Shown here piece after piece: positions 4,139 through 45,146 of a DNA stretch of 63,455 nt. The translations under genes were made by a program, and so were the position numbers. The stretch's first letter is position 1; every line of letters starts with the position of its first letter. The notes under the pieces were generated by a model, which searched no databases, was not told the DNA's origin, and saw only the letters and a list, made by a program, of their open reading frames with translations. The stretch comes from a virus. Taxonomy: Duplodnaviria > Caudoviricetes. The stretch is from positions 1 to 63,455 of the IMG/VR virus record IMGVR_UViG_3300043395_004412. One strand, 5' to 3'.

Positions 4139-5809
4139 ATGAGAGTTTTAGGTTTTTCTGTCGGACACGACAAGGGAGCTGTTATTATTGAAAACGGAAA
4201 AATTTTGATTGGAATAACTCAAGAGAGACTTTCTAGAGTTAAACATGATGGTGCACACGTTGGCGGAATAGTCCCAGCAGAATCAATAAGGTATTGTTTA
4301 GATAATACTTCACTCACATTCAAGGATATTGATTTGTGGGTTTATAGTACAACTGAAGAAGTTGATGATGTCCTTATCCAATTCAAAAAATTATTCAAAT
4401 ACGACATTTCTGAAAAACATGAATTTTTACCTCATCACTTGGCTCATGCATATTCTACTTTTTTTAGCTCAGGATTTGATGATGCCGCAGTAGTTGTTGC
4501 TGATGCTTCAGGTAGTATTTTGGATGATAGAAATCGTTTGTCTGAGTGGTATCCAAATAAAACTCGTGAGGGTCTTTTGTCTGGTGAAACTTGGACTGAA
4601 GGAATCTCTATATATCACTTCACAAAATCTGACTATAAAGAAGTTTATAAAAAATGGATTAAATACCCTGTACCAATAGATACAGGCGATGACGTTTCAG
4701 TTGGTACCGTTTACTCTGAAGGGTCATTACAATTAATTTATGAACCTCAACACCATACATGGCCAGCAGGAAAATTAATGGGATTAGCTTCTTATGCTGA
4801 TAAATCAATCGTTGCTGAAGCTCCACATTATATTGTTTGGACCGAGGATGAAGACATATTCATACCAAATAACAGAATCTACCCAAGGGTTTCATACGAC
4901 TCAGATTTTTTCTCAAGAGCCTGTGTTGCAGGAATTTATCAAAGGGAACAAGAAAGGGTTTCTTTGATGTTGGCAGAAAAAGCAAAAAAACTTACAGAAT
5001 CGAAAAACATTTGTGTCGCTGGCGGGTCATTCCTTAATTGTAATTCAAATGAACAAATATTGAATTCGGGTTTATATGAAAATTCTTATTTCATTCCTCC
5101 ATCTGATGACTCAGGTATTCCTTTAGGTTGTGCTTGGTATGGATATCAAATGATAAGCCCAATCAAAAATTTGAAACCTTTATCTCCATATTTGGGTAAA
5201 TCTTATTCCGAAACGGAAATTGTGAAATCTATGAACGAATTTCCAAATATTGAGTTCAGAAGATATGATAATTTTGACGAATTGATTGAGGAAGTTTCAT
5301 ACTTACTACAACAAAACAGAGTTATTGGTTGGTTCCAAAATGGTTCTGAAATTGGTCCAAGAGCTTTAGGAAATCGCTCAATTTTAGCTTCTCCTATACA
5401 AAGATGGATGACTGGGTATATCAATTCAGACATAAAAAAAAGAGAGTGGTACAGACCTTTTGCGCCAGCGGTCCTATTTGAACATCAATCCGAAATATTT
5501 GAATCTGATGTTTTTTCTCCATACATGTTGGTAACTACGACTGTAAAAGAAAATTGGAGAAACAAAATACCTGCGGTGACTCATATTGATAATTCAGCCC
5601 GACACCAGTCAGTTACAGAAGAGTCTAATTCAAAATTTCATAAACTTATTACTTCATTTTATAACAGGACAGGTGTACCAGTTCTTTTAAACACAAGTTT
5701 CAATGGTCCACATGAGCCAATTGTTGAGACACCGATTGACGCAATCAAGTCGATGTACAGCTGTAGATTAGATTTTCTTGTTATAGGTGATATTCTTATT
5801 AAGAGATAA
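4139..5809 (+). CDS. Carbamoyltransferase (NodU/CmcH/TobZ family)
   Basis: GHD, ERLSRVKH, HHLAHA, GKLMGLA, EIGPRALGNRSIL, REWYRPFAP, LLNTSFN. Confidence 0.95.
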   Translation: MRVLGFSVGHDKGAVIIENGKILIGITQERLSRVKHDGAHVGGIVPAESIRYCLDNTSLTFKDIDLWVYSTTEEVDDVLIQFKKLFKYDISEKHEFLPHHLAHAYSTFFSSGFDDAAVVVADASGSILDDRNRLSEWYPNKTREGLLSGETWTEGISIYHFTKSDYKEVYKKWIKYPVPIDTGDDVSVGTVYSEGSLQLIYEPQHHTWPAGKLMGLASYADKSIVAEAPHYIVWTEDEDIFIPNNRIYPRVSYDSDFFSRACVAGIYQREQERVSLMLAEKAKKLTESKNICVAGGSFLNCNSNEQILNSGLYENSYFIPPSDDSGIPLGCAWYGYQMISPIKNLKPLSPYLGKSYSETEIVKSMNEFPNIEFRRYDNFDELIEEVSYLLQQNRVIGWFQNGSEIGPRALGNRSILASPIQRWMTGYINSDIKKREWYRPFAPAVLFEHQSEIFESDVFSPYMLVTTTVKENWRNKIPAVTHIDNSARHQSVTEESNSKFHKLITSFYNRTGVPVLLNTSFNGPHEPIVETPIDAIKSMYSCRLDFLVIGDILIKR

Positions 5810-5814
5810 TTTCA

Positions 5815-7407
5815 ATGAGTACCATTTACGGTTTTTTTGGTGGGTCCCACAGTCCTTCTACATCTTTCATGAAGGATGGTCAAATAATATGTTGTATTGA
5901 AGAAGAAAGACTTACCAGAAAAAAAGCGGGCGACAATTTTGATTCAGTTGCCGAATTAAGTTCAGTGGAAGTAGAAAAAATATCAGGTGTATCAATAAAA
6001 GATGCCGACTACAGAGTTTTTGTTGAGCCTGTTACCGAACTTTTTGCAAATAGATTAACGAACTACAATTACGATAGAGTAAGTCACCACGATGCACATT
6101 GTTATGGTGCATATTTTACAAGTGGTATGGAAGGAAAAGCCTTGAGTATTTCATATGATGGTGGAGGAGATAAATCAGTGATGAAAATTTATCTTTGTGA
6201 AGATGGTAAAATGAATTTAGCCCACTCATATGATATGTGTTCGACTGGTAGTATAGGCCACCTTTGGGCATTTGCAGTAAGCACTATCAAAGGTTATGAC
6301 CACGAAGGTGAGAGCGTATGGAAAATGTGTAAAGACGAAGGCAAATTGATGGGTATGGCTCCCGACGGAGAATACGATGAAACTTTTTACAGAATTCTAA
6401 ATTCTCTCATTGACTATAAAGATTTGCGTTTTTTTCCCAACGATACGGGTAATAAAACAAGGTTTGTGGTTGAATATATGTTTAGATTGGGATGGTTCAA
6501 AGACCAAAAAAATATTGAAAAGTTTTCTTATAATCTTCAAAAATTAACTGAAGATTTAATGTTAAGGTTCCTTAATGACTTACATAAAAAATTTCCCGAA
6601 TACAAAAAACTTTGTCTTTCGGGTGGAATTTTTGCGAATGTAAAACTTAATCAAAAAATTAATCAACTTTCTTGGGTCGATGAAATTTATGTTATGCCAG
6701 CTATGGGTGATGAGGGTTTGAGTTTGGGTGCATGTATCATTAAGGCAACACAATTGGGGGAAATCACAAAACCCTTCAAATTAAAGAATATGTTTTTTGG
6801 TAAGAATTATTCGAATCGTCAAATAATTGATTCGTCAGAAAAATATAATGTGACGTATGAAAAATATGACTCCAAAAAAATTGCAAAACTTATACATGAA
6901 GGCGAAATAATTGGATGGTTTCAAGATGGTTTTGAATATGGACCAAGAGCTCTTGGCGCTAGAAGTATTTTAGTAAGACCCACAGATTATGAAACTCACA
7001 AAAAATTGAACGGTCGACTTAAAAGACACGATTCAATGCCTTTTGCTCCAATTGTTATGGACGAATACTTTGATGATATATTTGTTGAGTCTAAATCTAA
7101 ATATTCTGCAGAATTCATGACCTTGTGTTATCAAACCAAGGATGAATGGATAGATAAAATTCCTGCTGTTATTCAAAAATCCGACAAAACCGCGAGGCCA
7201 CAATTAGTGAAGAATGAAAATAATCCGAAATTTTGGGAAATTTTGAACGAATATCATCTTATTTCAGGAATCCCTGTTTTATTGAATACATCTTTTAACA
7301 CACACAATGAACCCATAATTGATAAACCAGACCATGCATTCCCAAAACTTATGGATGGTACTTTAGATAAACTTGTAATAGGAGACTATGTATTTTCAGT
7401 TAGGTGA
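5815..7407 (+). CDS. Carbamoyltransferase (second paralog)
   Basis: EEERLTRKK, HHDAH, DGGGD, EGKLMGMA, EYGPRALGARSIL, PFAP, LLNTSFN. Confidence 0.95.
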   Translation: MSTIYGFFGGSHSPSTSFMKDGQIICCIEEERLTRKKAGDNFDSVAELSSVEVEKISGVSIKDADYRVFVEPVTELFANRLTNYNYDRVSHHDAHCYGAYFTSGMEGKALSISYDGGGDKSVMKIYLCEDGKMNLAHSYDMCSTGSIGHLWAFAVSTIKGYDHEGESVWKMCKDEGKLMGMAPDGEYDETFYRILNSLIDYKDLRFFPNDTGNKTRFVVEYMFRLGWFKDQKNIEKFSYNLQKLTEDLMLRFLNDLHKKFPEYKKLCLSGGIFANVKLNQKINQLSWVDEIYVMPAMGDEGLSLGACIIKATQLGEITKPFKLKNMFFGKNYSNRQIIDSSEKYNVTYEKYDSKKIAKLIHEGEIIGWFQDGFEYGPRALGARSILVRPTDYETHKKLNGRLKRHDSMPFAPIVMDEYFDDIFVESKSKYSAEFMTLCYQTKDEWIDKIPAVIQKSDKTARPQLVKNENNPKFWEILNEYHLISGIPVLLNTSFNTHNEPIIDKPDHAFPKLMDGTLDKLVIGDYVFSVR

Positions 7408-34078: not shown

Positions 34079-34116
34079 TGTAAAATAAATATCAAAAAAA
34101 ATGAAACCCTTGTTTT

Positions 34117-34980
34117 CTATTTACCTGAATAATCGCCCAACAAAGTTATTGGTTGACTGTTTTTAAGTGATTCGAGTATTCCTTCTTCAATTTTACTCGA
34201 TGGAAACTTGTAATGTACTCTAATAAGTTTTATTCCATTGTTAAAACAATACTCATTTTTTATCTTATCGTTTTCCTGTATTTCATCGTATTTTCTTGCG
34301 TATTTGGTCTTGGGGTTAAAATGCTGCTCTCCGTCATACTCTATTACAGTATTAATATCAGGAATGTAAAAATCAAATCTCAATGGTCTACAATACTTTC
34401 CCTCAACTTTGTTATTACAATCTTCAAAAATTTTTTCACGGTTATCACATTTTCTAGAACCCATGCATTTAGGGTCGATTAAACCTTTTTCTACTAAAAT
34501 TTTCGCAATTAATTCTTCACCAGCGGATATTTTTTCAGGTACAAAATGAGAGGTTATTGATTGGTAAAAATCTTTACCTCTTTTGTTAGCTGCGTTAAAG
34601 TAATTAAAAGAATTTTTTTTGAATTGTGCCGCGGTTTTATATTTTTTCGCCTCTTGTTCGAGTTCATCAGGTGAATATTTGATTTTTGATTCAATATAGT
34701 CAAACCTGCATCCATTTCCTTTTAAATGATGAAATGGATAAATTTCAAAATATTCGTGACCTGTTTTTTTCAACCAATCTTCTCTGTGTTTGGGACATAT
34801 AATTTTGACTTTGTTTTTACTGTCCTTATAGTCAGTCAATGAATAATCATATTTCGGATTACCATCATCATCAACATGTATTTTTTTTGACGCATCAACA
34901 AATTCTTGAGTGGTTTTTTTATTTTGTCCACCCGCTTCCATCAATCTTGTATACTGAGATTCTGTTATGATAATTTTCAT
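34117..34980 (-). CDS. Endonuclease (DUF723-like + Vsr/DUF559-like), homing-endonuclease-like, with leader motif
   Basis: KYDYS...KIICPKH; LRFDFYIP..VIEYDGEQHF; DKIKNEYC...IKLIRV. Confidence 0.85.
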   Translation of the reverse strand: MKIIITESQYTRLMEAGGQNKKTTQEFVDASKKIHVDDDGNPKYDYSLTDYKDSKNKVKIICPKHREDWLKKTGHEYFEIYPFHHLKGNGCRFDYIESKIKYSPDELEQEAKKYKTAAQFKKNSFNYFNAANKRGKDFYQSITSHFVPEKISAGEELIAKILVEKGLIDPKCMGSRKCDNREKIFEDCNNKVEGKYCRPLRFDFYIPDINTVIEYDGEQHFNPKTKYARKYDEIQENDKIKNEYCFNNGIKLIRVHYKFPSSKIEEGILESLKNSQPITLLGDYSGK

Positions 34981-35003
34981 CTATCATAAATACAAAACAA
35001 AAT

Positions 35004-37599: not shown

Positions 37600-38918
37600 T
37601 ATAGACCGTATTTTGACTTTGTATTATTATAGTTTTGTAAAACTTGAGCTCCCGACAGTCCAACGTTGTAAATTTGGCAAGCGCCTAGTCTGTATGTACA
37701 TATTGTTGTAGTTGTGGTCATGTCTGTTGATGTAGGGTAACCTAAATTGAAATACATCGGTAATGAACCACCAGCATTGTAAGGTGTATCTCTTGAATAG
37801 GTTGAACTTCCTACACTACTTCCATTTACATATCCAGTTAAAGTACCATTATATGTCCAACCAACATAATACCAGTTGTTAAGAGCATAAGTTCCTGATG
37901 TTATGGGTGCCGTGTTGATTGTATACGGCCAAACACCAAATAAAAATCTATTACTTGAATCTCTTTGAATTTGAGCGTCATACCAACCTCCATCAGGGGT
38001 TAAGTTACCTTGTTCGGAATATATTATACCATTCGATGTTGGGTAAATCCATAAGAACATAGATTGATTTGTTCCTGTATTAGCGGGGGACAAATAAGGG
38101 TTGATATTGGCCGTATAGATATATTCGAACGTGCCTCCATCAATTGTAAGATAATTTGGAGAACCACTTGTATAAACTATCGTTCCCGTCAAAGTTCCAT
38201 TGATGTTTCCTTTAAGGTCAGTAATAACTGAGCCTGAACCGCTATATGAACTTGAATTTTGTATATCCCAATTCATAATCAAATTGGTCTGAATCAAAGC
38301 TGTTGTTGGTGAAGGTGTTACTGTTGGCGTTGGTGTAGTTGTTTTGGTTGGAGTTTGAGTTACTGTTGGCGTTGGTGTAGTTGTTTTGGTTGGAGTTTGA
38401 GTTACTGTTGGCGTTGGTGTAGTTGTTTTGGTTGGAGTTTGAGTTACTGTTGGCGTTTGAGTAGGAGTAGCGGTAAGAGTGGTTGTTGTTGTTGGCGTTG
38501 GTGTAGTTGTTGTCGTTGGGGTATTTGTAGGTGTTTCGGTTTGTGTTATTGTAGGTGTGGGTGTTGGTGTAATGGGGGTAAATGTTGTGGAATAACCGTT
38601 GCTGTTTAACCAATTATATGCATCCAATCCATCTGAAAAATTTTGTCCCGAAATTGAGTTAACCAAATCTATGAACTCAGAAACCAAAAATCCGTTTGTC
38701 CTAAAAAATCCCAAATAAGCAGATGAGCCAACAGGATTTGGTTGGTTTCCCGCTGATATAGGTTGTGCAATTACATAACCCAAACTATCATCTGGACCGT
38801 TCCAAAATTGTGGTGAATTCGTAAAACCTGAGATTGGACTACCTATCGCAAAGTCTCCCGATTGGGTTGTACCCGATATCGGAATTAAACTTGGGTTGTA
38901 TGCGTAAGGAATTGCCAT
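37599..38918 (-). CDS. Virion/adhesin protein: shared N-terminal domain + Thr/Pro linker + LamG domain
   Basis: [33 protein letters not shown]. Confidence 0.85.
38317..38456. repeat. 42-bp perfect tandem repeat, about 3.3 copies
   Basis: GTTACTGTTGGCGTTGGTGTAGTTGTTTTGGTTGGAGTTTGA; encodes [14 protein letters not shown]. Confidence 0.9.
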
Positions 38919-38946
38919 TTTTTTATAAATATCTATTCTATTTTCA

Positions 38947-39507
38947 TCAACATTGACCCCAATTGATGACTTTGGTTCCAACTACTTGAATGAAAGTTGC
39001 TCCATCCGTGATAGTGAATTTAGCACCTACAGGGGGGATTGAAAATTGTCTATTCCCGTAAACATTATCTCCAGGTCTTAATTGATGAAATGGTTTTGGT
39101 GCGTAAATGGTAACATTACTCGGGGTCCCATAGTCAATAGACTCACATACGTCTTGATACCAATTTCCTGTTATTAAATTTTCTATGAAAACAGGTGTAG
39201 GTGTAAAGGTTGGAGTTGGGGTATAGGTCGCAGTTGGAGTTGGTGTGTGAACCGTTGGTGTTACAGTCATTGTTGGTGTAACCGATGGGGTCAGAGTTGC
39301 TGTCGGAGTCGCGGATGGGCATGGACCCATAATTTGAATATTCAGAGGAGAACTATATTCTTCCTGTAATAAATTTTCAGCACAAACATATGCTCTATCC
39401 AATGGGTTCAAAGGGGATACACTTATAATTCCTGTACATCCCGTCCAAACGTAATATCCTTCTTCAACTGTGTTATAATTGGTTATTTCGTAGTAATTAC
39501 ACGCCAT
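38947..39507 (-). CDS. Thr/Pro-linker, Cys-containing virion protein
   Basis: TPT repeats between two small domains. Confidence 0.75.
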   Translation of the reverse strand: MACNYYEITNYNTVEEGYYVWTGCTGIISVSPLNPLDRAYVCAENLLQEEYSSPLNIQIMGPCPSATPTATLTPSVTPTMTVTPTVHTPTPTATYTPTPTFTPTPVFIENLITGNWYQDVCESIDYGTPSNVTIYAPKPFHQLRPGDNVYGNRQFSIPPVGAKFTITDGATFIQVVGTKVINWGQC

Positions 39508-39530
39508 AACAATAAATAGAATGGGGGGAT

Positions 39531-39561
39531 AAAAAAAAAGGGGGACACCGTCGTGTCCCCC
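39531..39561 (-). terminator. Strong intrinsic terminator of ncRNA cassette
   Basis: GGGGGACAC-GACG-GTGTCCCCC + T9. Confidence 0.9.
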
Positions 39562-39842
39562 GAATCTCCGTCGAGATAAATTTGGTCCTATTTTTTTTAG
39601 ACTAAGGGGCCGAAGACCATCAAACCCGTGGGAGTGGACAACTCCTATTTCTATTTTACGCCTGAAACATCCAAAAGAAGGCTTAGGTTGTTAGTTTATT
39701 AAGGATGAAACTGGAATTACCTTTCCATGTAAACCTCCCGTGTTTGGTTTGTCCATAATTTCTGAATTTATAAAGCGGAGAAGAAATCAGGAAGGGTGAG
39801 TATGGGGAACCACCGCTCGTAAACATTCCGCTGTCCATTTGT
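39531..39842 (-). ncRNA. Putative ~310-nt structured ncRNA
   Basis: Own promoter and terminator; raised GC; many complementary segments. Confidence 0.65.
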
Positions 39843-39846
39843 TTTA

Positions 39847-39878
39847 CAAAGATAAGAAAGATTTTAATGCCTTCCAAA
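39847..39878 (-). promoter_or_regulatory. Bacteroidota sigma70-type promoter
   Basis: TTTG-N20-TATCTTTG. Confidence 0.8.
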
Positions 39879-39916
39879 TCTTTTCAAAAAATTCAGATAA
39901 AAATCTGAAAATTTCG

Positions 39917-40004
39917 TGGTTGGGAGTGGAGTCGAACCACTGGCACACGGTGTTCACCCGCTGCTCTACCATAAACCCCGAAGAGTTACTGAGCTACCTC
40001 AACC
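39917..40004 (-). ncRNA. Atypical tRNA-like RNA
   Basis: Acceptor GGTTG(A)GG/CCCAACC, TA-GCTC...GAGC D-stem, AGTGG-TTCGACT-CCACT T-arm; D-loop has extra UUCG hairpin; anticodon arm defective. Confidence 0.8.
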
Positions 40005-40014
40005 AATTGTCTTA

Positions 40015-40046
40015 CAAAGATAAGAAATCTTTTTCGGACCGCCAAA
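40015..40046 (-). promoter_or_regulatory. Bacteroidota sigma70-type promoter
   Basis: TTTG-N20-TATCTTTG. Confidence 0.8.
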
Positions 40047-40065
40047 ATTTGTAAGAACTTTTTTT

Positions 40066-40108
40066 GTTCGAATACCGAGTATCTTTCATCGCCTTTAAGT
40101 TCCGAACT
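40066..40108 (-). ncRNA. Putative ~45-nt hairpin RNA
   Basis: GTTCGGA/TTCGAAC closing stem with inner CGA/TCG stem, directly after promoter. Confidence 0.45.
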
Positions 40109-40113
40109 GAACA

Positions 40114-40145
40114 CAAAACTAATTACTATTTCCTATTCCGTCAAA
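40114..40145 (-). promoter_or_regulatory. Bacteroidota sigma70-type promoter
   Basis: TTTG-N20-TAGTTTTG. Confidence 0.75.
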
Positions 40146-40164
40146 TTTTTTGGTATTTATTTTT

Positions 40165-40806
40165 ATGAAGAAATTATTTTTAACCACCATTTTGTTTTTA
40201 AGTATAGGAATTTCATATTCACAAGATACTATAAGAGTGAATCACACAAATTACACTACTGTTTTTTCCAAATCAAAAAAATATCCTGTAGTTGTCGAAT
40301 GGTGGGTTACCAAAGACATGGTGAGTTGCCCGTATCCATTAAAAAGAAAAGACAACTTTAAACCTGACCCAAAGCTATTTCAATACACTGATTTATTAAA
40401 AGATTATGTGGGAAGTGGTTTTGATAGAGGACATATGATGCCTGCCGCAGATAATCTTTGCCAAACTCAACAGGTTCAAGATGAATGTTTCTATTTTTCT
40501 AACATGGCTGCACAATATCATAGTTTGAATGCGGGTGATTGGAAGTCTCTAGAAACCTATGTGAGAGAGGAATCAAAGAAAAGTGACTCAGTACGAGTGT
40601 GGTGTGGGAATTTGGGTGAAATAAAAAAAATTGGTTCGGTATCAGTACCCAAGTATTGCTGGAAAGTAATTTACATCAAGAAAGAAAATATATGGAAATC
40701 ATTCTTATTTAATAACGACAATTCAAAACCTGACGGGTTTCAAAATAACGAAGTCAAGTTATCTGAAATTGAAAAAATGACGGGTTTTAAATTTAAGAAT
40801 TTATAA
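40165..40806 (+). CDS. Secreted DNA/RNA non-specific endonuclease (NucA/EndA type)
   Basis: Signal peptide; GFDRGHMMPAAD; SNMAAQ..LN..W..LE; VPKYCWKV. Confidence 0.93.
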   Translation: MKKLFLTTILFLSIGISYSQDTIRVNHTNYTTVFSKSKKYPVVVEWWVTKDMVSCPYPLKRKDNFKPDPKLFQYTDLLKDYVGSGFDRGHMMPAADNLCQTQQVQDECFYFSNMAAQYHSLNAGDWKSLETYVREESKKSDSVRVWCGNLGEIKKIGSVSVPKYCWKVIYIKKENIWKSFLFNNDNSKPDGFQNNEVKLSEIEKMTGFKFKNL

Positions 40807-41089
40807 CACCGTCAAGATATTTTTTTATTGTCCTTCTAATTTTTTGCTCCCCTAAAGCAACCCAGTCATCTTCAATCATTTGAAAAATTTTCCCGACTAA
40901 GTATTTTTTATTGCCGACTAGTGGTCTTGTTTTATCGTCAATTTGTATTAATTTAAGAGGAGTTTTCATCCAATCAAAATTGATTTCATGAGTTGGGAAA
41001 TGTCTTTTCAGATAAGTCAAAAGTTCATCTGAAGTATCGTCAACATATTTTGATAAAATTTCTTTTCTTTCTTCCTCTGTAATACGCAT
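40793..41089 (-). CDS. Hypothetical protein with leader motif
   Basis: MRITEEERKEILSKY. Confidence 0.7.
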   Translation of the reverse strand: MRITEEERKEILSKYVDDTSDELLTYLKRHFPTHEINFDWMKTPLKLIQIDDKTRPLVGNKKYLVGKIFQMIEDDWVALGEQKIRRTIKKYLDGVINS

Positions 41090-41299: not shown

Positions 41300-41587
41300 A
41301 TGTTAGATAAGAAAAGAAGACTATTTCGCCTAATAGAAACCTACATCAATGATTACCAAAAAGAAGCTGTGGAGGAGATGTATGGTGTTGGTACAAGAAT
41401 CAAAATCCACAACATTGTAGAGTCTCAAACTCAAAAGTCAATTTTATTCGAGGCTGTGATTATTTTGGGTGAAACTATAACTGAACAAGTTATGGATAGA
41501 AAATTAGCCGATGTGTTAATTCAGGATGCGATGGTCTATTTTTTTCCTGACCAATCAATTAAAACTTATGTAAGGTGGGATGTTTAG
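41300..41587 (+). CDS. Hypothetical protein
   Basis: 95-aa ORF. Confidence 0.7.
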   Translation: MLDKKRRLFRLIETYINDYQKEAVEEMYGVGTRIKIHNIVESQTQKSILFEAVIILGETITEQVMDRKLADVLIQDAMVYFFPDQSIKTYVRWDV

Positions 41588-43241: not shown

Positions 43242-43274
43242 GACTATAAATACTTCAGTTTATTGAAAATTTTA

Positions 43275-45093: not shown

Positions 45094-45146
45094 AGTTTGA
45101 TTTTCTTTATAAATAGTCTAATTTTTATTAAGAAATATTTATTGTT

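Follow-up and report, generated by a model that had tools for sequence, protein, structure and literature searches.

A densely pseudoknotted non-coding RNA gene beside a tRNA-Phe-like gene in a jumbo phage fragment

The RNA gene and the phage that carries it

The minus strand of the IMG/VR virus record IMGVR_UViG_3300043395_004412 (63,455 bases, CheckV completeness 24%; this whole stretch of DNA is called the window below) carries a non-coding RNA gene at 39531–39840. The gene, about 310 nt long with the U-run of its terminator, is recognised by its homologues, by a covariance model and by covariation. Upstream of it lie a promoter and a tRNA-Phe(GAA)-like gene, while the window continues downstream with a gene for a 186-amino-acid protein and then with three paralogues that have lectin or LamG domains. 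An earlier note, made from the letters of the window alone, had proposed a highly structured, pseudoknotted RNA of about 310 nt and of no known class at 39531–39842. All the strings that it listed are present there on the minus strand, and the proposal is borne out both by covariation among homologues and by the lack of a matching Rfam family. It is very probable, in our view, that a genuine structured non-coding RNA is encoded here, one whose family is missing from Rfam and which is carried by a clade of uncultivated freshwater jumbo phages. Unless stated otherwise, the features described here are on the minus strand, and RNA position n corresponds to window position 39841 − n.

The close relatives of the window include contigs of 317–335 kb, three of them rated 100% complete, and the window is therefore a fragment of a jumbo phage. 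Between 82 and 99% of the words sampled from the 801-nt stretch around the RNA (39300–40100) were found in DNA runs labelled riverine, freshwater, freshwater sediment or aquatic metagenome (20 rows from 16 studies, one of which is possibly the window's own source). No close deposited phage was found: blastn of the region matched only tRNA-Phe pieces in three Bacillus phage records and a 47-nt piece of one uncultured phage, and tblastn with the window's carbamoyltransferase against deposited phages gave at most 32% identity and no cultured relative. This enzyme belongs to a pair of tandem Nol-like carbamoyltransferase genes on the plus strand (4139–5809 and 5815–7407; phrog_1601, E 7e-102 and 5e-88). 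The nearest deposited relatives of the first of them, the only gene of the tandem that was searched, are mostly cyanophage genes at about 31% identity.

A conserved non-coding element

Using nhmmer, we detected the element in 36 of the 89 loci fetched via two neighbouring proteins, which yielded 14 distinct sequences. A 20-letter motif taken from the most conserved block then retrieved 42 IMG/VR stretches and at least 119 metagenome stretches. Eighteen motif-bearing stretches from 185,579 prokaryote genomes were set aside as chance matches, their nhmmer similarity being confined to the motif itself. The resulting collection comprises 93 distinct full-length homologues, of which 53 are less than 95% and 36 less than 90% identical to one another; the most distant is 57% identical to the window. 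With a covariance model of nine nested helices, trained on 25 sequences, all 93 are recovered at 198–311 bits, together with five short paralogues at 60–77 bits and one cut copy; the alignment that results (A2) has 99 rows. Two complete genomes (317 and 326 kb) hold exactly one copy each. In the third complete relative (G003, 335 kb) the model finds nothing but a spurious 17-bit match, and the RNA is thus not present in all kin.

The homologues are 296–312 nt long, and their lengths fall into all three modulo-3 classes (33, 24 and 36 of the 93). The 21-codon open reading frame (ORF) to which the earlier note had drawn attention does exist in the window, starting at RNA position 85, but a role for it is unsupported, as its ATG is kept in only 5 of the 93 homologues. 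Given the even spread of length classes and the loss of this ATG, the element at 39531–39840 is non-coding. The note had also set two outcomes against each other, conservation of a reading frame or conservation of base pairs, and the homologues display the second: the pairs are conserved and the frame is not.

Covariation across the family

Across the 99 rows of A2, the 44 pairs of nine helices, three of which are pseudoknot helices absent from the covariance model, are paired in 95.4% of cells, as compared with 42.9–54.9% when partners are slid. Changes on both sides occur in 29 of the 44 pairs, amounting to 547 such cells against a shuffle mean of 175, and none of 500 shuffles reached the observed covariation values.

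P4, P5, PK2 and PK3 were out of register in MAFFT and in the first covariance model, and were assessed by anchored searches fitted to each sequence. In a partner-swap control, 5′ and 3′ segments taken from different sequences were paired, and mean own and mean swapped scores were compared. Own partners scored higher for distal P4 (10.4 against 7.1; swapped at least equal to own in 27.7%), PK2 stem 2 (15.2 against 12.5; 18.8%), PK3 stem B (11.8 against 9.8; 31.7%), PK2 stem 1 (10.8 against 9.2; 40.6%), P5 (10.0 against 8.8; 47.7%) and PK3 stem A (10.4 against 10.0; 57.4%). The positive controls P6 (11.6 against 7.1; 16.3%) and P9 (10.5 against 7.7; 27.3%) can be compared with negative controls at 4.9–5.2 own and 4.4–4.6 swapped, in which swapped partners equalled or exceeded own ones in 58–68%. 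Taken together, P1, P2, P4, P6, P9, PK2, H1, the terminator and the two pairings of a hairpin loop with a strand (P6 loop with strand X, P5 loop with strand Y) are well supported, with moderate support for PK3 stem B and for P5.

A chain of pseudoknots from the 5′ to the 3′ end

These pairings define a compact and almost fully pseudoknotted fold, which runs from a first pseudoknot (PK1) through a double loop-to-strand knot and PK2 to the P9 loop, where the core is closed with the 5′ end, and continues with PK3 and two GACG hairpins. The crossing pairings from which pseudoknots had been predicted on the window alone are real, as confirmed by covariation in the homologues.

At the 5′ end, the P1 strand UGGACA (39832–39837) pairs with the P9 loop and thereby closes the core domain as a pseudoknot. 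P1 is 92.9% paired, changes from C-G to U-A in 11 rows of A2, and was not part of the covariance model. P2 (39827–39831 with 39775–39779, spanning 39775–39831; RNA 10–14 with 62–66) is the AGCGGA/TCCGCT pairing of the earlier note. It is 97.5% paired, with three of its five pairs changed on both sides, and GCGGA/UCCGC is replaced by GAGGG/CCCUC or GAGAG/CUCUC in homologues. P2 encloses the hairpin P3 (39795–39814), whose GGUG/CACC stem is 100% paired and whose 12-nt loop, GUUCCCCAUACU, is nearly invariant in the collected set.

P4 (39782–39792 with 39752–39763; RNA 49–59 with 78–89) crosses P2 to form PK1, with P3 inside loop 1, and the conserved UUUAUAAAUU is the loop between the two P4 strands. 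Its proximal part, UUUCU/AGAAA, is conserved and corresponds to the pairing proposed earlier between TGATTTCT and AGAAATTA, while the distal 4–6 base pairs covary (GACC/GGUC, AACA/UGUU, CGUC/GACG, ACCUUU/AAAGGU, GAGAU/AUCUC, AAACC/GGUUU).

The double loop-to-strand knot is built from two hairpins and two strands. In strand X (GGGAGGU, 39733–39739), AGG (RNA 105–107) pairs with the CCU of the P6 loop; this pairing is 82.7% formed and changes from G-C to A-U in 11 rows and from A-U to C-G in 11 rows of A2. A Shine-Dalgarno-like role for GGGAGGU was considered and rejected, given that A105–G107 covary with the P6 loop and become CAG in some clades. The GGG of strand X (G102–104) possibly pairs with the CCC of the P3 loop, a pairing backed only by the short paralogues described below, in which UUUUU in a U-rich loop faces AAAAA in an A-rich strand. 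P5 (39712–39727), previously listed as TGGAA/TTCCA, has variants that can be read across homologues and a weak partner-swap result, whereas P6 (39694–39711) is 97.2% paired with compensatory changes in all four pairs. Strand Y (ACCU, 39685–39688) pairs with the P5 loop (AGGU) at 90.5%, with GG/CC replaced by UU/AA in 13–19 rows, and this helix too was not in the covariance model.

PK2 (39646–39682) is an H-type pseudoknot with stem 1 GCCU/AGGC (RNA 159–162 with 178–181), a pairing already seen in the window, and stem 2 GUUUC/GAAAU (173–177 with 190–194). The 5′ strand of stem 2 abuts the 3′ strand of stem 1, and loops 1 and 3 consist of 55% U and 53% A, respectively. The anchored search found PK2 in all 53 representatives, with 32 variants of stem 1 and 30 of stem 2; 105 of 3180 shuffles reached the observed score, and the slid control gave 0.95 versus 0.30–0.41. 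It is followed by the hairpin P9 (GGAG/CUCC, 39631–39645), which is 96.5% paired with all four pairs compensatory and whose loop UUGUCCA (39635–39640) provides the 3′ strand of P1.

Beyond the core, a further H-type pseudoknot, PK3 (39583–39627), combines stem A (GGG/CCC), stem B ((U)GGUC/GACC(A), RNA 222–226 with 254–258; the TGGTC/GACCA listed before) and a loop 3 rich in A. For stem B, 38 variants were read from a noisy search in which 284 of 2120 shuffles equalled or exceeded the observed score. The two GACG-loop hairpins noted at the 3′ end correspond to H1 and to the terminator. H1 (39564–39577) is 97.8% paired, with three of five pairs compensatory and a GACG tetraloop in 93 of 93 homologues. 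The intrinsic terminator (39531–39561) consists of a 9-base-pair G+C-rich stem with a GACG tetraloop (39561–39540) and a run of nine T (U9 in the RNA); it is 99.0% paired, with seven of nine pairs compensatory and the loop kept in 89 of 93 homologues. Elsewhere in the window, no terminator-like hairpin has a GACG loop. Such identical tandem tetraloops suggest that a protein or an RNA receptor makes a specific contact here.

Three proposals of the earlier note fell away once homologues were compared. In the proposed CAAAC..GGGAG/CTCCC..GTTTG pairing, CTCC instead pairs locally with GGAG 196–199 in the covarying P9, and AGG 105–107 pairs with the P6 loop. The latter covariation also displaces CATCC/GGATG, which is missing from several clades. 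Finally, the alternative folds suggested by a duplicated TGGACA lose their basis, as the second copy (RNA 86–91) is specific to the window and its GGA lies within distal P4.

Transcription signals and the adjoining tRNA gene

The promoter at 39847–39877 comprises TTG (39875–39877) and the TAnnTTTG box TATCTTTG (39847–39854), which lies 6–9 nt upstream of the first conserved base of the RNA and is kept upstream of most homologues. We take TTG...TAnnTTTG to be the Bacteroidota promoter consensus, and this is our sole basis for the host phylum. The string TTATCTTTG occurs exactly at 39847–39855 and again at 40015–40023, before the tRNA-like gene, and the two promoters are 87% identical over a 31-nt stretch.

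The tRNA-Phe(GAA)-like gene itself (39917–40004), directly upstream of the RNA, has its own promoter box and is followed by a hairpin with a T-run ahead of the RNA promoter. It departs from a standard tRNA in three respects: the D-loop contains an inserted hairpin of about 18 nt, an A bulges from the acceptor stem, and the anticodon stem has 4 base pairs. It scores 26.5 bits with the Rfam tRNA model, for which the cut-off is 29 bits, and was missed by ARAGORN. In blastn searches it matches the tRNA-Phe genes of Bacillus phages. Relatives without the D-loop insertion are called tRNA-Phe by ARAGORN (8 of 48 loci), and the long form is mis-typed in 13 loci. In nearly all relatives this tRNA gene is the immediate upstream neighbour of the RNA. 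In most of the 53 representatives a tRNA T-arm and 3′ end lie within about 150 nt upstream of the RNA; in the others the tRNA lies at a greater distance, the space between being taken up by a short RNA paralogue or by a different small conserved element.

In one clade (L116, L265 and L039), the tRNA is fused to the RNA with neither terminator nor promoter between them, the tRNA end ...CCAC being followed 4 nt later by UGGAUAG. This arrangement implies that tRNA and RNA share one transcript, from which the RNA is released by 3′ processing of the tRNA, and it would place the 5′ end of the RNA near position 1.

Several other small elements accompany the tRNA gene. A short paralogue of the RNA (about 235 nt, 60–77 bits) lies between the tRNA and the full copy at L192:2237–2471(−), L240:3282–3535(+), L160:7711–7946(+), L217:5176–5411(−), L154:5901–6136(−) and L291:2537–3082(−), the last being two copies. 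It keeps the core from P1 to P9, lacks PK3, H1 and the terminator, has its own promoter, and shows a U-rich P3 loop and an A-rich X strand. A conserved element of about 120 nt, with compensatory changes in a CGGAU...GUCCG hairpin, follows tRNA-Phe and precedes the RNA promoter at L216:4667–4789(+), L195:1645–1760(−), L171:355–472(−) and L231:4083–4200(+). Another clade has an element of about 75 nt (...GUGUCGUCUGUA...ACAGGAGGUCCCAC) between tRNA and RNA (L256:3621–3720(+), L132:983–1082(−), L123:403–500(+), L258:542–622(−), L164:1429–1509(+)). In addition, a hairpin-like element with G(U/C)GAUGAAAGAUACUCGG lies upstream of the tRNA gene in the window (about 40067–40100) and upstream of the tRNA or the RNA in L116, L265, L039 and L254; the L254 copy has its own TAnnTTTG box, and this element may be another small RNA.

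Metatranscriptome contigs

Six RNA-library runs, all river metatranscriptomes and carrying six study codes, hold 41–42% of the words of the 801-nt stretch, a share that corresponds approximately to the length of the RNA. Four of these runs were mapped, and in all four, Logan contigs with a k-mer depth of 83–136 cover the region from 39570 or 39575 to 39850–39884. Beyond 39884, the contigs enter letters unlike the window that resemble the tRNA-linked element of about 120 nt (L231, L195, L216). The four runs give a depth of about 2 at 39887–40065 and no cover at 38900–39557 and 40075–40300, where missing contig cover is no evidence of silence. At the other end the contigs stop within H1, at 39570 or 39575, two of them beside adapter-like letters, which is a weak hint of a processed 3′ end inside this hairpin.

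Genes around the RNA

The first ORFs downstream of the RNA fall into six unrelated clusters. In 11 rows they belong to one family with a common N-terminal domain. Within the lectin-like virion gene block that follows the RNA in the window, an HNH or homing endonuclease-like gene is present at 34117–34980 (phrog_559, E 7e-28).

The ORF that follows the RNA carries TATTTAT 5–11 nt before its ATG. This motif has 51 sites in the window against 34.3 expected, a number reached by none of 100 shuffles, and may represent a phage promoter or a translation-start signal. Examples are found at 39512–39518(−), 34085–34091(−), 34986–34992(−), 43246–43252(−) and 45136–45142(+), and in the cases checked by eye the motif lies 5–25 nt upstream of ORF start codons. 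The RNA contains UAUAAAU, whose complementarity to TATTTAT amounts to six A-U pairs only.

The best-conserved neighbours, both strongly syntenic, are a 95-amino-acid protein (41300–41584, plus strand; 40 of the 53 representatives) and a 98-amino-acid protein (40796–41089; 32 of 53). The structural model of the former (predicted local distance difference test, pLDDT, 86.6) resembles KH domains of type II, as found in Era, uS3 and RbfA, with E values of 2e-3 to 4e-2. The model of the latter (pLDDT 89.7) has an alpha-beta3-alpha core with conserved lysines; it gave no significant structural match, with weak rows for double-stranded RNA-binding domains at E>2 only.

Discussion

We favour the view that the gene encodes a stand-alone RNA that is folded, stable and active in trans and that represents a new family, a reading that we consider probable and in which the function is one that we infer. 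The RNA would be transcribed from its own host-type promoter or, in one clade, released from a tRNA–RNA co-transcript by tRNA 3′ processing, and its transcript would end at or before the intrinsic terminator. It would then accumulate as a stable species and act in trans: its rigid fold would present a partner, either protein or RNA, with invariant unpaired elements, namely both GACG loops, the UAUAAAUUAGAAA strand and the 12-nt loop of P3. Its role would be that of a scaffold or decoy rather than of a regulator of the next gene, and we give this more specific proposal roughly even chances.

A number of observations weigh against this reading. The nested minimum-free-energy fold of the window RNA alone is unremarkable (−81.6 kcal/mol, z −1.22, 11 of 100 shuffles as good), and the case for a structured RNA rests on covariation. 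P3 and PK3 stem A are conserved and never vary, and so carry no covariation information; single-sequence shuffle tests are weak for PK3, as given above, and for P4 (1065 of 2650 reach the observed score). The invariance of the P3 loop is in part a matter of construction, the P3 motif having gathered most of the homologues; all 14 sequences first found by nhmmer also carry this motif. The RNA-library contigs show neither transcript ends nor strand nor level, and presence in an RNA library is no proof of transcription; they also suggest that co-transcription with upstream RNA genes occurs in the abundant strain. No partner was found for the RNA. The 95- and 98-amino-acid proteins were considered as partners and this idea is unsupported, because the KH-like family occurs without the RNA in 25 of 64 IMG/VR loci, one of them with a partial nhmmer match; the complete relative G003 has neither the 95-amino-acid protein nor the RNA. 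Finally, in 26 of 27 rows the U-run is followed at a distance of 0–74 nt by the start of a same-strand ORF, and read-through into the next gene is possible.

This last arrangement is what would be expected if the element were a cis-acting 5′ leader of the riboswitch or attenuator kind, whose terminator controls read-through into lectin-like or virion genes upon binding of a ligand or factor. In line with this idea, no host-type promoter lies between the terminator and the ATG at 39507, the downstream family shared by 11 rows is followed in the window by its paralogues, and the layout of PK2 is that of ligand-binding triple-helix pseudoknots. A leader is less likely, however, because the downstream gene families vary, with six unrelated clusters of first ORFs in place of the one regulated gene family expected of a riboswitch, and the downstream ORF bears the generic TATTTAT signal common to many phage genes. 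A non-exhaustive search for an antiterminator found no conserved pairing, its one candidate (UCUCCG 60–65 with CGGAGA 271–276) being lost where P2 has changed, and the Rfam riboswitch models are silent. Furthermore, a short paralogue has a promoter, lacks a terminator and precedes another RNA gene, and one clade has the RNA joined directly to a tRNA. We therefore hold a leader to be unlikely.

Slightly less likely still is an RNA-only assembly of the ROOL or GOLLD type, in which monomers would join, for instance by pairing of the 5′-UGGACA of one molecule with the UGUCCA loop of another, into a multimeric particle during infection. The phage or prophage context beside tRNA genes is shared with GOLLD and ROOL, the fold is ornate with conserved exposed loops, and the loop-to-end pairing of P1 could equally form in trans. 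Yet the covariation of P1 fits intramolecular pairing equally well, there is no similarity to ROOL or GOLLD in sequence or model, and the RNA is half to a third their size.

We consider it improbable that the RNA is a ribozyme or a specific processing substrate, with self-cleavage or a cut in the GACG loops generating the mature 3′ end. Its pseudoknotted core has many invariant unpaired nucleotides, its tandem hairpins share a tetraloop that is unique among the terminator-like hairpins of the window, and the RNA-library contigs stop in H1. Contig ends are not molecule ends, however, and random priming and stable hairpins can give the same pattern; no known ribozyme family matches, and no cleavage-site signature was identified.

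A very divergent tmRNA, RNase P RNA or T-box-like tRNA-binding RNA, to which the string of H-type pseudoknots, the adjacent tRNA gene and the complementarity of GGUGGUU (27–33) to a tRNA 3′ end AACCACC (once CCA is added) might point, is largely refuted and very improbable, given the silence of the corresponding Rfam models even at E<=10, the findings on tmRNA set out below, and a GGUGGUU pairing that does not covary, as the L082 clade has U in place of G31 but retains C71.

Returning to the stand-alone, trans-acting RNA, a broader version of this proposal is more doubtful: the RNA might be the first representative of an undescribed class of ornate phage RNAs, a particle of about 300 nt that consists almost wholly of pseudoknots, is made together with a phage tRNA-Phe, is highly abundant when freshwater Bacteroidota are infected and works as an independent RNA machine or as a decoy. 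For example, a host defence or processing factor that binds RNA might be sequestered by its invariant loops, or an RNA-only multimer might assemble. Large and intricately folded RNAs of unknown function are rare, and earlier examples have led to new biochemistry: HEARO proved to be a guide RNA, and the ROOL and GOLLD RNAs proved to form cages. The present RNA is short enough for structure determination and unusually dense in pseudoknots supported by covariation, which makes it a tractable target for RNA structural biology. It is also a candidate RNA-level factor for host takeover or anti-defence in giant phages of an under-studied host phylum, and its surroundings indicate that a phage tRNA locus can harbour a cluster of structured RNAs that have escaped annotation.

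Relation to known RNA classes

The RNA at 39531–39840 falls outside every known RNA class with which it was compared. We searched the 4227 Rfam families at gathering score across the whole window, which returned seven tRNAs only, and at E<=10 in 39300–40150, which returned nothing relevant besides the sub-threshold tRNA at 39917–40004; no family reached its gathering score in the RNA or in ten related loci. As the earlier note had maintained, there is no sign of RNase P, signal recognition particle (SRP) RNA or transfer-messenger RNA (tmRNA): the covariance models of RNase P, SRP and 6S RNA have no match at gathering score or at E<=10, with the ten related loci likewise negative, and ARAGORN detects no tmRNA. 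A T-box is equally absent at E<=10, and the GGUGGUU lies near the 5′ end rather than at the terminator. The covariance models of GOLLD and ROOL match neither the window nor the ten related loci. Templates of reverse transcriptases (retron, DGR, DRT or telomerase-like) were rejected, as RVT_1 (PF00078) is absent from the window and two complete relatives (G000, G001, G002), while control genomes matched. A loose likeness of the P3 region to 5S rRNA was also rejected, with no 5S match in Rfam at E<=10.

Full-text literature searches found no description of the RNA. Fremin et al. (2023; PMC10690425) screened IMG/VR and reported 8495 candidate structured RNAs in DNA viruses; in the accessible text, no comparable RNA of jumbo phages or Bacteroidota is mentioned, and the supplementary tables might list it. 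The accessible text of a jumbo phage review from 2026 (PMC13282480) refers to non-coding RNAs for phiKZ only.

Among known systems, tmRNA resembles the present RNA in its consecutive H-type pseudoknots, its link to tRNA and its occurrence in huge phages. It differs in that the two ends of the present RNA form no tRNA-like domain: they show no acceptor or T-arm pairing, and the 5′ end pairs with an internal hairpin loop instead. Nor is there a tag frame, since no ORF or stop is conserved and the UAA at 71–73 is CAA in several clades.

A second likeness concerns a single sub-domain. In the telomerase RNA core, SAM-II and preQ1-II, a U-rich loop 1, a U-A stem 2 and an A-rich loop 3 form U.A-U triples. 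PK2 has the same layout as these triple-helix pseudoknots, with a U-rich loop 1, 4–6 U-A pairs in stem 2 and an A-rich loop 3; Rfam gives no SAM-II, SAM-V or preQ1 match.

Another parallel in phage biology is offered by species 1 and 2 (rnaC and rnaD) of the phage T4 tRNA cluster, small stable RNAs that are matured with tRNAs and whose function is unknown. Like the present RNA, these are phage RNAs within or next to tRNA genes, but they are smaller and are not known to be pseudoknotted.

Work on GOLLD and ROOL, finally, includes a cryo-electron microscopy preprint (10.1101/2024.12.08.627333) and PMC5737381. These RNAs share with the present one the character of orphan, highly structured and phage-borne RNAs beside tRNA genes. 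At roughly 580–800 nt they are larger than the RNA described here, which with its approximately 300 nt forms a linear chain of small H-type pseudoknots, in hosts that appear, judging from the promoter type, to be Bacteroidota.

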